48,664 bases of DNA from a virus (Duplodnaviria > Heunggongvirae > Uroviricota > Caudoviricetes), in the IMG/VR virus record IMGVR_UViG_3300029686_000225, one strand, 5' to 3'. A model generated the notes under the pieces. That model ran no database searches and was not told where the DNA came from. It saw nothing but the letters and a program-made list of their open reading frames with translations. This document shows, piece by piece, positions 31,786 through 31,995 of this stretch (position 1 is its first letter; each line of letters opens with the position of its first letter). The translations under genes and the position numbers were made by a program.

Positions 31786-31839
31786 ACTGGTGACCTACTG
31801 ATTACAAGTCAGTTGCTCTACCTACGGAGCTAAGTCGGC
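31786..31839 (-). tRNA. tRNA-Thr(UGU)-like 5' fragment, 3'-truncated pseudo-tRNA
   Basis: Minus strand GCCGACT-TA-GCTC...GAGC-ACTGA-CTTGTAA-TCAGT with perfect D and anticodon stems; no T arm or acceptor 3' strand found. Confidence 0.35.
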
Positions 31840-31841
31840 AC

Positions 31842-31918
31842 TGGACCGCCACCGGAGACTCGAACCTCGCACTCTCAACTTAAAGGGTTGACTCTCTTTC
31901 CTGATGAGCTAGTGGCGG
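31842..31918 (-). tRNA. tRNA-like gene, non-canonical anticodon loop CCUUUAA (formally UUU)
   Basis: 77 nt; 7-bp acceptor CCGCCAC/GTGGCGG, TTCGAGT T-loop, CCA end; weak D and T stems and C at position 33. Confidence 0.45.
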
Positions 31919-31919
31919 T

Positions 31920-31995
31920 TGGTGGCCCTTGCTGGATTTGAACCAGCGACCTGGCGATTATGAGTCGCTCGCTCTCACCACTGAGCTAAAGGGCC
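31920..31995 (-). tRNA. ileZ: tRNA-Ile2 (anticodon CAU), ileX/ileZ-like
   Basis: GGCCCTTTAGCTCAGTGGTGAGAGCGAGCGACTCATAATCGCCAGGTCGCTGGTTCAAATCCAGCAAGGGCCACCA, near-identical to E. coli ileX architecture. Confidence 0.85.

Follow-up and report, generated by a model that had tools for sequence, protein, structure and literature searches.

Three closely packed tRNA-like units in the late region of a lambdoid prophage raise the question of whether they form a phage tRNA cluster of a known kind, and of how two of them came to depart from the canonical form. The units lie on the minus strand of IMG/VR record IMGVR_UViG_3300029686_000225, a stretch of 48,664 nucleotides (nt) that was analysed as a whole and is referred to as the window. 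A first-pass annotation, made from the letters alone, had read them as a cluster resembling the ileZ-argN-argO array of Shiga toxin (Stx) phages, with only the first unit canonical. ARAGORN, Rfam and identity to an annotated array in Escherichia coli 08-00022 bear out three units at the coordinates that it gave (Table 1). Scores against the Rfam tRNA covariance model (RF00005; gathering score, 29 bits) are 72.5 bits for unit 1, 33.1 bits for unit 2, and 26.7 bits for unit 3, in keeping with the first unit being the only canonical one. The presence of the three units lies far beyond chance.

A truncated form of a common prophage tRNA array

A megablast search with the region finds matches in 328 phage records and in nearly every complete E. 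coli genome. The matches cover at most 76% of the query in any record, and all good matches end at position 31785. The best of them, from the non-Stx prophages of E. coli 08-00022 and STEC309 and from phage PhiR47_1, are annotated Ile(CAU)–Lys(UUU)–Thr(UGU)–Gly(UCC). The array is intact, as Ile/Met(CAU)–Lys(UUU)–Thr(UGU)–Gly(UCC), in L001 (E. coli 08-00022), L002, and L003, and annotation of the Lys(UUU) gene is missing in some array records. The annotated tRNA array of E. coli 08-00022 and the window are 100% identical from a point upstream of unit 1 down to 31785, where position 55 of tRNA-Thr falls. Of the four genes, the window holds the first two, plus 55 nt of tRNA-Thr; in contrast to the intact array, the final 21 nt of that gene and the whole of tRNA-Gly are missing, and the 3′ end carries a relic sequence described below.

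These alignments indicate that the locus is most simply read as a truncated derivative, retaining the proximal half of a four-gene array that is common downstream of the antiterminator gene Q in many E. coli lambdoid prophages. The direct parent would be Ile2–X(UUU)–Thr(UGU)–Gly(UCC), where X is the slot of unit 2, and not ileZ-argN-argO itself. The relation to ileZ-argN-argO noted in the first-pass annotation stands, in that the four-gene array is related to that of the Stx phages. As an element of a known kind, here cut short, the locus is for the most part already annotated in public records, and in itself it is an ordinary prophage tRNA array minus its distal half. A literature search returned nothing specific on ileZ/argN/argO or on the Ile-Lys-Thr-Gly prophage array.

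The locus resembles the Stx array (for example, that of Stx2a phage F349 and the 933W type) in several respects. Both are late-region arrays situated downstream of Q, unit 1 is ileZ of phage F349 base for base, unit 2 is built on the argN scaffold, with which it aligns over its full length, and the genes stand 1-13 bases apart, each with an encoded CCA. In the window, unit 2 starts 1 base past unit 1, and unit 3 starts 2 bases past unit 2. However, of the order Ile2(CAU), Arg(UCG), Arg(UCU) only slot 1 matches. Slot 2 carries UUU and C33 instead of UCG and U33, slot 3 carries a Thr(UGU) fragment instead of argO (Arg UCU), and no stx genes follow.

The loci found to hold unit 2 number 124, drawn from 120 IMG/VR contigs and fetched relatives. 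The IMG/VR loci were collected by a pattern that fixes the loop and the T arm and are uninformative on conservation there. Four-gene arrays account for 92 of the 124, and 13 read Ile2–X–Arg(UCU), with a few further variants.

Two variants of the array were observed in passing. In five IMG/VR loci (L040, L057, L073, L077, and L103), the third tRNA is a Thr scaffold with a UUU anticodon, the loop CUUUUAA, a normal U33, and A73, so that the array reads Ile2–X(UUU)–Lys(UUU)–Gly; unit 2 of these loci carries U8C, C11U, and U73G. The third tRNA looks like the product of a Thr-to-Lys anticodon switch. In E. coli M19 (L155, 437-590), unit 2 has the loop ACUUUAA together with C5U and C11U, and the Thr gene also has several substitutions. 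Five mouse-derived strains (M6 to M19) carry this type of array, with unit 2 and tRNA-Thr unannotated by RefSeq, and the array of these strains seems to be decaying as a whole.

A probable recombination junction within the third unit

Unit 3 has perfectly paired D and anticodon arms, with the anticodon UGU at 31806..31804. It keeps the acceptor 5′ strand, the variable loop, the T-stem 5′ strand, and T54-T55, and it lacks C56 and the remainder of the T loop, as well as the 3′ strand of the T stem and a complementary acceptor 3′ strand. Where an intact tRNA-Thr has TTCGATT, unit 3 has TTATACT, and it forms neither the four stems nor the T54-Ψ55-C56 sequence of a complete tRNA. Even with G·U counted, pairing is possible at no more than 3 of 5 positions in the T stem and 4 of 7 in the acceptor stem. 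ARAGORN makes no call, and the Rfam alignment skips the T arm. The description of unit 3 in the first-pass annotation, with intact D and anticodon arms but no T arm or acceptor 3′ strand, is therefore accurate, the T-stem 5′ strand and T54-T55 being what remains of the T arm. The tRNA-related sequence of unit 3 runs past the left edge given there, to about 31764. The same annotation would have yielded to covariance models rejecting both units 2 and 3: unit 3 is rejected, consistent with its truncation, but unit 2 passes, though in a local scan only.

The first 55 nt of unit 3 are those of the intact tRNA-Thr(UGU) of E. coli 08-00022, including A14C in the D loop (31826). This C at a normally invariant A14 is also present in L067, and the tRNA-Thr of the 08-00022 lineage may have been impaired already before the truncation. 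From 31784 downward, the window matches other prophages, including those of E. coli 442/2 and N18-04097, at 92-96% identity. The switch of nearest relative is abrupt. L001 is 100% identical down to 31785, and L005 is 95.9% identical from 31795 downward; the last marker of the intact type is A44 (31796), and the first marker of the relic type is A56 (31784).

The relic is a sequence that aligns with tRNA-Thr at full tRNA length (for example, ATCGATGTATCTCAGCAGGATGGCAACTGACGTGTAAGCAGTTGGTCACCAGTTATACTTCGGTGGTAC) and precedes an open reading frame (ORF) of 92 amino acids (aa) in L004, L005, and 18 IMG/VR contigs (L133-L150). Neither ARAGORN nor Rfam calls a tRNA in it. In L004, the relic and the 92-aa ORF precede TerB/DUF3927/holin, as Thr-Gly does in L002. 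Because its position matches that of Thr-Gly, the relic can be read as a degenerate allele of the same Thr gene, and it is most simply explained as an old, decayed, stand-alone tRNA-Thr at the head of another lysis-region module. Accordingly, unit 3 would end in a degenerate tRNA-Thr sequence from a second phage module, a point beyond the view of the first-pass annotation.

Taken together, these alignments make unit 3 very probably a pseudogene left as a recombination scar, and not the product of decay in situ. The first-pass annotation had allowed for either, and the switch from L001 to L005 favors the scar. In the proposed mechanism, the left module would contribute an intact tRNA-Thr, and the right module would start with the decayed tRNA-Thr relic, followed by the 92-aa ORF and phiP27-like lysis genes. 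Homologous recombination between the two modules would occur within the 11 bases common to both, GGTCACCAGTT. The exchange would leave a Thr gene with no working T loop or acceptor 3′ strand, and tRNA-Gly would be lost. Elsewhere in the window, neither the Thr 3′ end nor tRNA-Gly is found.

An abrupt switch of nearest relative at a short common sequence is also the mark of lambdoid mosaic junctions and morons, and the right side has, like them, a small ORF with its own terminator-like hairpin. Unlike in those junctions, the bases in common here belong to a tRNA gene and to a degenerate allele of it, and the exchange would thus have destroyed a gene. The locus would thus offer a base-resolved case in which a tRNA gene and a degenerate allele serve as the homology patch for lambdoid module exchange, at the cost of the gene.

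Two points weigh against recombination of this kind. The junction was not found in 5426 complete E. coli genomes, in IMG/VR, or in a one-genome-per-species set. The recombinant lineage is therefore rare, with only two independent sequences in support; the junction occurs twice in the metagenome collection, in L131, a contig of the same phage that is 100% identical to the window over 14.4 kb, and in L132, from another record, which is 96.3% identical over 2.7 kb. In addition, 11 bases are short for RecA-type recombination, and a microhomology-mediated illegitimate join could equally have produced the junction.

Unit 3 could instead have arisen without any exchange between phages, either from an internal deletion alone or from point mutations by which a resident tRNA-Thr decayed. 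Deletions between tRNA genes and the DNA downstream of them are common, and the window lacks both tRNA-Gly and the TerB/DUF3927 genes that follow in L001 and L002. However, the right side is not random DNA but a full-length relic and 92-aa ORF that form a unit in L004, L005, and the 18 contigs; no relic lies downstream of the intact array in L001, L002, or L003, so that no intramolecular donor is seen; and the nearest type flips from L001 to L005 within the 11 bases. We consider this origin improbable. An assembly chimera of two co-resident prophages, joined through common tRNA sequence, is still more improbable: exact junction matches come only from metagenome assemblies, and repeated tRNA sequence is a classic site of mis-joining, but L132 carries its own substitutions on both sides of the junction, which indicates that the junction was inherited and then diverged.

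A role of unit 3 as an integrase attachment site in tRNA-Thr was considered and rejected, as there is no integrase or duplicated tRNA 3′ end nearby.

Separately, a sigma-70-like promoter match (TTGTAA-16 nt-TATACT, 9/12) lies within unit 3 at 31807..31780 on the minus strand and points at the 92-aa ORF. Its −35 element is the Thr anticodon loop and its −10 element is the mutated T loop of the relic; relic copies have GTGTAA at that −35 position. With the 92-aa ORF and the terminator-like hairpin (31415..31398), it would make up a moron-like unit. The promoter scan returned 5 such sites against 3.4 expected by chance, and the match in unit 3 could be a coincidence.

The second unit as an argN homologue

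Unit 2 is called tRNA-Lys(UUU) by ARAGORN. Its Rfam score is obtained in a permissive local scan only, and the whole-window run at the gathering score does not report it. The anticodon loop reads C32 C33 U34 U35 U36 A37 A38 at 31886..31880, with C33 at 31885 and UUU at 31884..31882; position 33 is thus C and not the U33 of canonical elongator tRNAs. The discriminator is U73, and CCA is encoded. The stems contain a G10·A25 mismatch (31893), an A51·C63 mismatch in the T stem, and a G52·U62 wobble (31856). These features agree with the C33, the weak D and T stems, and the formal UUU anticodon described in the first-pass annotation.

Unit 2 agrees with argN (tRNA-Arg UCG) in its acceptor stem (CCGCCAy/GGTGGyGG), in U73, and in the D and T arms, the A51·C63 mismatch included. 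The two diverge mainly in the anticodon arm, where argN has the loop CUUCGAA, a G-C pair at 30-40, and a U·G pair at 27-43, and unit 2 has CCUUUAA, A-U, and U-A, respectively. The alignment shows that unit 2 is an argN homologue, and it occupies the argN slot.

Other copies of the scaffold carry other anticodons. In L151 and L152 (IMG/VR), the unit 2 scaffold stands in an Ile2–X–Thr–Gly array with the loop UUUCUAA (Arg UCU, U33), and the acceptor stem shows a compensatory change from C4-G69 to U4-A69. A scan of position 33 finds the U33 form of the scaffold only with anticodon UCU. In E. coli CE0026a (L153:435-511), the scaffold has the loop CCUGUAA with anticodon UGU and is labelled tRNA-Thr by RefSeq; this strain, as a side observation, has two adjacent "Thr" genes. 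In phiP27 (L009, NC_003356), an unannotated, degenerate argN-like sequence lies at 2741-2822 between ileZ and argO, with recognisable acceptor stem, D arm, and T arm and a scrambled, longer anticodon arm. The argN slot appears to have switched anticodon repeatedly on a constant body, because sister copies on one scaffold carry UCU or UGU. Counting against this account of unit 2, a change in the direction from Arg to UUU would follow only if U33 is taken as the normal state.

The UUU form is by far the commonest. A search with three flank backgrounds finds the exact loop CCUUUAA at 804 places, in 752 of the 5426 complete E. coli genomes; about 14% of these genomes thus have the dominant UUU/C33 form. 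A BLAST search with 63 concatenated single-base loop variants, which recovered its included positive control, finds such variants in only 18 genomes, 17 at position 32 and one at position 35; in the backgrounds tested, the complete E. coli genomes show none at positions 33, 34, 36, 37, or 38. Unit 2 is a widespread, anticodon-switched relative of argN that RefSeq labels tRNA-Lys, which the first-pass annotation could not see.

Pairing is largely kept across the slot. Among 20 distinct slot-2 sequences, 94.5% of stem cells are paired, the acceptor stem is 100% paired, and two-sided changes occur at 5 pairs, which suggests that the cloverleaf is maintained across the family. The A51·C63 mismatch is present in 16 of the 20. 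At the same time, some lineages persist despite U8C (in 26 of 124 loci), the loss of 1 nt from the D stem (in 15 of 124), or G18A. The best copies of unit 2 score 33-43 bits in Rfam and two others are unreported, whereas neighbouring tRNAs score 65-74 bits. Minimum free energy folding of single units is uninformative: even canonical units do not fold into a cloverleaf, and both unit 2 and argN give z-scores close to zero.

The allele in the window, the same as that of E. coli 08-00022, adds C25A and C62U, two further changes that weaken the stems; the identical copy in 08-00022 is left unannotated by RefSeq. Because of these two substitutions, the window allele would be a poor decoder at best. 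A one-base-shifted anticodon, UUA (ochre suppressor), was rejected, since the shifted stem is unpaired and the 7-nt loop would not present the triplet.

Possible functions of the second unit

The biology of unit 2 is the sole moderately interesting question of the locus, which points to an E. coli prophage RNA that is very common but unstudied and that has an Arg-tRNA scaffold, a Lys anticodon, C33, and no PARIS AriB cleavage motif in its anticodon stem.

Unit 2 may be a non-decoding, tRNA-shaped spacer, or a slowly decaying pseudogene carried along with ileZ, a reading that we hold tentatively and at less than even confidence. As a spacer, it would keep its acceptor stem and T arm since an RNase P cut at its 5′ end, one base past the CCA of unit 1 in a polycistronic transcript, would free mature ileZ. 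In closely spaced E. coli tRNA operons, RNase P-dependent separation is established, and the units here are only 1-2 bases apart. A spacer would also account for an acceptor stem that is paired in every variant while the core (U8, G18, and the D stem) is damaged in persisting lineages, for the low covariance-model scores, and for the argN-slot wreck of phiP27, in which acceptor and T arm are recognisable and the anticodon arm is scrambled. However, the anticodon stem of unit 2 is kept as well, with the two-sided change of pair 30-40 relative to argN, which is unnecessary for a pure processing spacer, and the loop is nearly invariant in about 770 genomes. Arrays with a badly damaged unit 2 also retain it, so that selection and linkage are indistinguishable.

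It is also possible, but rather doubtful, that unit 2 is a working tRNA-Lys(UUU), charged by lysyl-tRNA synthetase (LysRS) through its UUU anticodon. Such a tRNA would decode AAA and AAG late in infection, notably when PARIS AriB or PrrC destroys the host tRNA-Lys(UUU), and it would evade these nucleases since its anticodon stem-loop lacks the recognition or cleavage sequence. The AriB site is U36AAUC|A41, where U39A abolishes and A41C reduces cleavage (PMC12409363), and T5 escapes through variant tRNAs of its own (PMC12409363; PMC11464382). Infection under PrrC170 is rescued by phage tRNA-Lys and not by E. coli tRNA-Lys (PMC11555353). Unit 2 reads U36AAGUU41 and differs from the AriB motif at positions 39, 40, and 41, which would fit a role in counter-defence.

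Several features of the family fit a working tRNA-Lys. CCUUUAA is found in 752 genomes and its single-base variants in 18, and the cloverleaf is kept with compensatory changes. In the five IMG/VR loci where unit 2 is damaged (U8C, U73G), the neighbouring Thr scaffold has acquired UUU in a normal loop, which suggests that the phages of those loci would gain from having a UUU tRNA; yet the Thr-to-UUU switch probably happened only once in evolution. Since AAA is no rare codon, a UUU tRNA is not explained by codon compensation alone.

Other features do not fit. C33 replaces the near-universal U33. The identity of E. coli tRNA-Lys lies in the anticodon U34 U35 U36 and the discriminator A73, and unit 2 has U73. 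The recurrent A51·C63 mismatch and the gap in Rfam scores between unit 2 and its neighbours point the same way, and the persistence of the U8C, D-stem deletion, and G18A lineages indicates weak constraint on the tRNA core. In the window allele, the G10·A25 mismatch is added, and RefSeq skips the identical L001 copy.

A third reading, which we regard as unlikely, takes the argN slot as a re-codable tRNA cassette (UCG, UCU, UUU, UGU) whose UUU/C33 form would be an anti-defence RNA. It could act as a nuclease-insensitive tRNA-Lys or as an anticodon-stem-loop decoy, shielding late phage translation from anticodon nucleases of the host or of rival phages that act on tRNA-Lys(UUU), such as PARIS AriB or PrrC. 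The comparison is with the nuclease-resistant tRNA variants already described from virulent phages, namely T5 tRNA-Lys/Thr/Asn against PARIS AriB and SP15 tRNA-Lys against PrrC170. Like them, unit 2 carries the targeted host anticodon, UUU, and its letters differ from the cleavage motif of AriB on the 3′ strand of the anticodon stem. Unlike the T5-type tRNAs, it is found in a temperate phage, on an Arg-tRNA scaffold, with C33, U73, and a weak core. Moreover, the phage tRNA-Thr adjacent to unit 2 keeps the host-like, AriB-sensitive UAAUCA motif, which speaks equally against a nuclease-evading tRNA-Lys. If unit 2 were a counter-defence tRNA, temperate phages and their lysogens would join the tRNA arms race shown recently for T5-like phages, and the RefSeq annotation as tRNA-Lys would want a functional footnote.

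The first unit

Unit 1 is called tRNA(CAU) by ARAGORN and is canonical in Rfam (E = 4.8e-14), well above the gathering score. Its anticodon CAU lies at 31962..31960, and CCA is encoded. RefSeq labels the identical gene in E. coli 08-00022 tRNA-Ile. The acceptor stem, read directly from the sequence, is GGCCCUU...AAGGGCC, giving C4-G69 and C5-G68, which we take to be the determinants by which TilS (lysidine synthetase) separates tRNA-Ile2 from tRNA-Met. Unit 1 is probably functional and most likely decodes AUA following lysidine modification. The genes of the window use AUA at 9.3 per thousand codons, roughly twice the level of E. coli genes, which fits the usual codon-supply reading of such a tRNA.

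The antisense strand of unit 1 (31922..31995, plus strand) gives an Rfam match to Plastid-ycf2 5′UTR. Matches to this family (26-36 bits; gathering score, 65.7) also occur antisense to tRNAs of L003, L006, L008, and L040. These and the antisense snoRNA matches are below gathering scores and were set aside as probable artefacts of tRNA-like sequence; for Plastid-ycf2, the likely cause is that the family's model includes sequence derived from tRNA.

A promoter-like element, TTGATT-16-TATTAT, lies at 32032..32005 on the minus strand and ends 10 bases upstream of unit 1. Its −10 element is within a block conserved in other phages, and its −35 element is outside it.

Genomic context

Taken whole, the window is a lambdoid prophage of the E. 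coli type: terminase and structural genes lie to one side, and genes for a repressor, an exonuclease, and an integrase lie to the other. The position of the Q gene places the array in the late-transcribed region (Table 1). The first-pass annotation had located the array between a Q-like gene and the lysis cassette; the region is right, but neither is a direct neighbour, as two ORFs intervene before unit 1 and the 92-aa ORF intervenes before the holins. The AraC-type gene upstream of the array is part of the left-hand module common to L001, L002, and phiSTEC1575-Stx2k.

Table 1 Features of the tRNA array and its surroundings (window coordinates)
Feature	Position	Strand	Basis or remark
Unit 1, tRNA-Ile2 type gene	31995..31920	-	ARAGORN, Rfam, ileZ identity
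Unit 2, argN-family tRNA-like gene	31918..31842	-	ARAGORN, Rfam, argN alignment
Unit 3, 5′ part, tRNA-Thr(UGU) nt 1-55	31839..31785	-	Identity to L001 (E. coli 08-00022)
Proposed crossover interval, GGTCACCAGTT (11 bases)	31795..31785	-	Alignments, BLAST boundaries
Unit 3, 3′ part, degenerate T-loop/acceptor remnant, ATACTTCAGTGGTAC...	31784..about 31764	-	Homology to relic
92-aa ORF, phrog_2873, unknown function	31717..31439	-	Travels with the relic side of the junction
Terminator-like hairpin, 3′ of the 92-aa ORF	31415..31398	-	
Lysis cassette, two holins and M15 endolysin, phiP27-like	31195..30107	-	Pfam; BLAST to phiP27, phiSTEC1575
AraC-type helix-turn-helix (HTH) gene, directly upstream of the array	32735..32022	-	Pfam HTH_AraC, HTH_18
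106-aa ORF	33192..32872	-	Between Q and the AraC-type HTH gene
Late antiterminator Q gene	34119..33298	-	Pfam Antiterm, 168.9 bits
RusA	Upstream of Q	-	

Two further observations concern genes away from the array. A 703-aa protein (37038..39149, minus strand) has an N-terminal GHKL ATPase domain and matches PADLOC models of type II restriction enzymes, and a 365-aa C5 cytosine methyltransferase (35948..37045, minus strand) adjoins it; the two, which lie in the prophage's nin region, resemble a restriction-modification pair. In the early-left operon, an 801-aa protein (44953..47358, plus strand) has a C-terminal Rv2179c-like 3′-5′ exoribonuclease domain, and its relatives are annotated plainly as "exonuclease".

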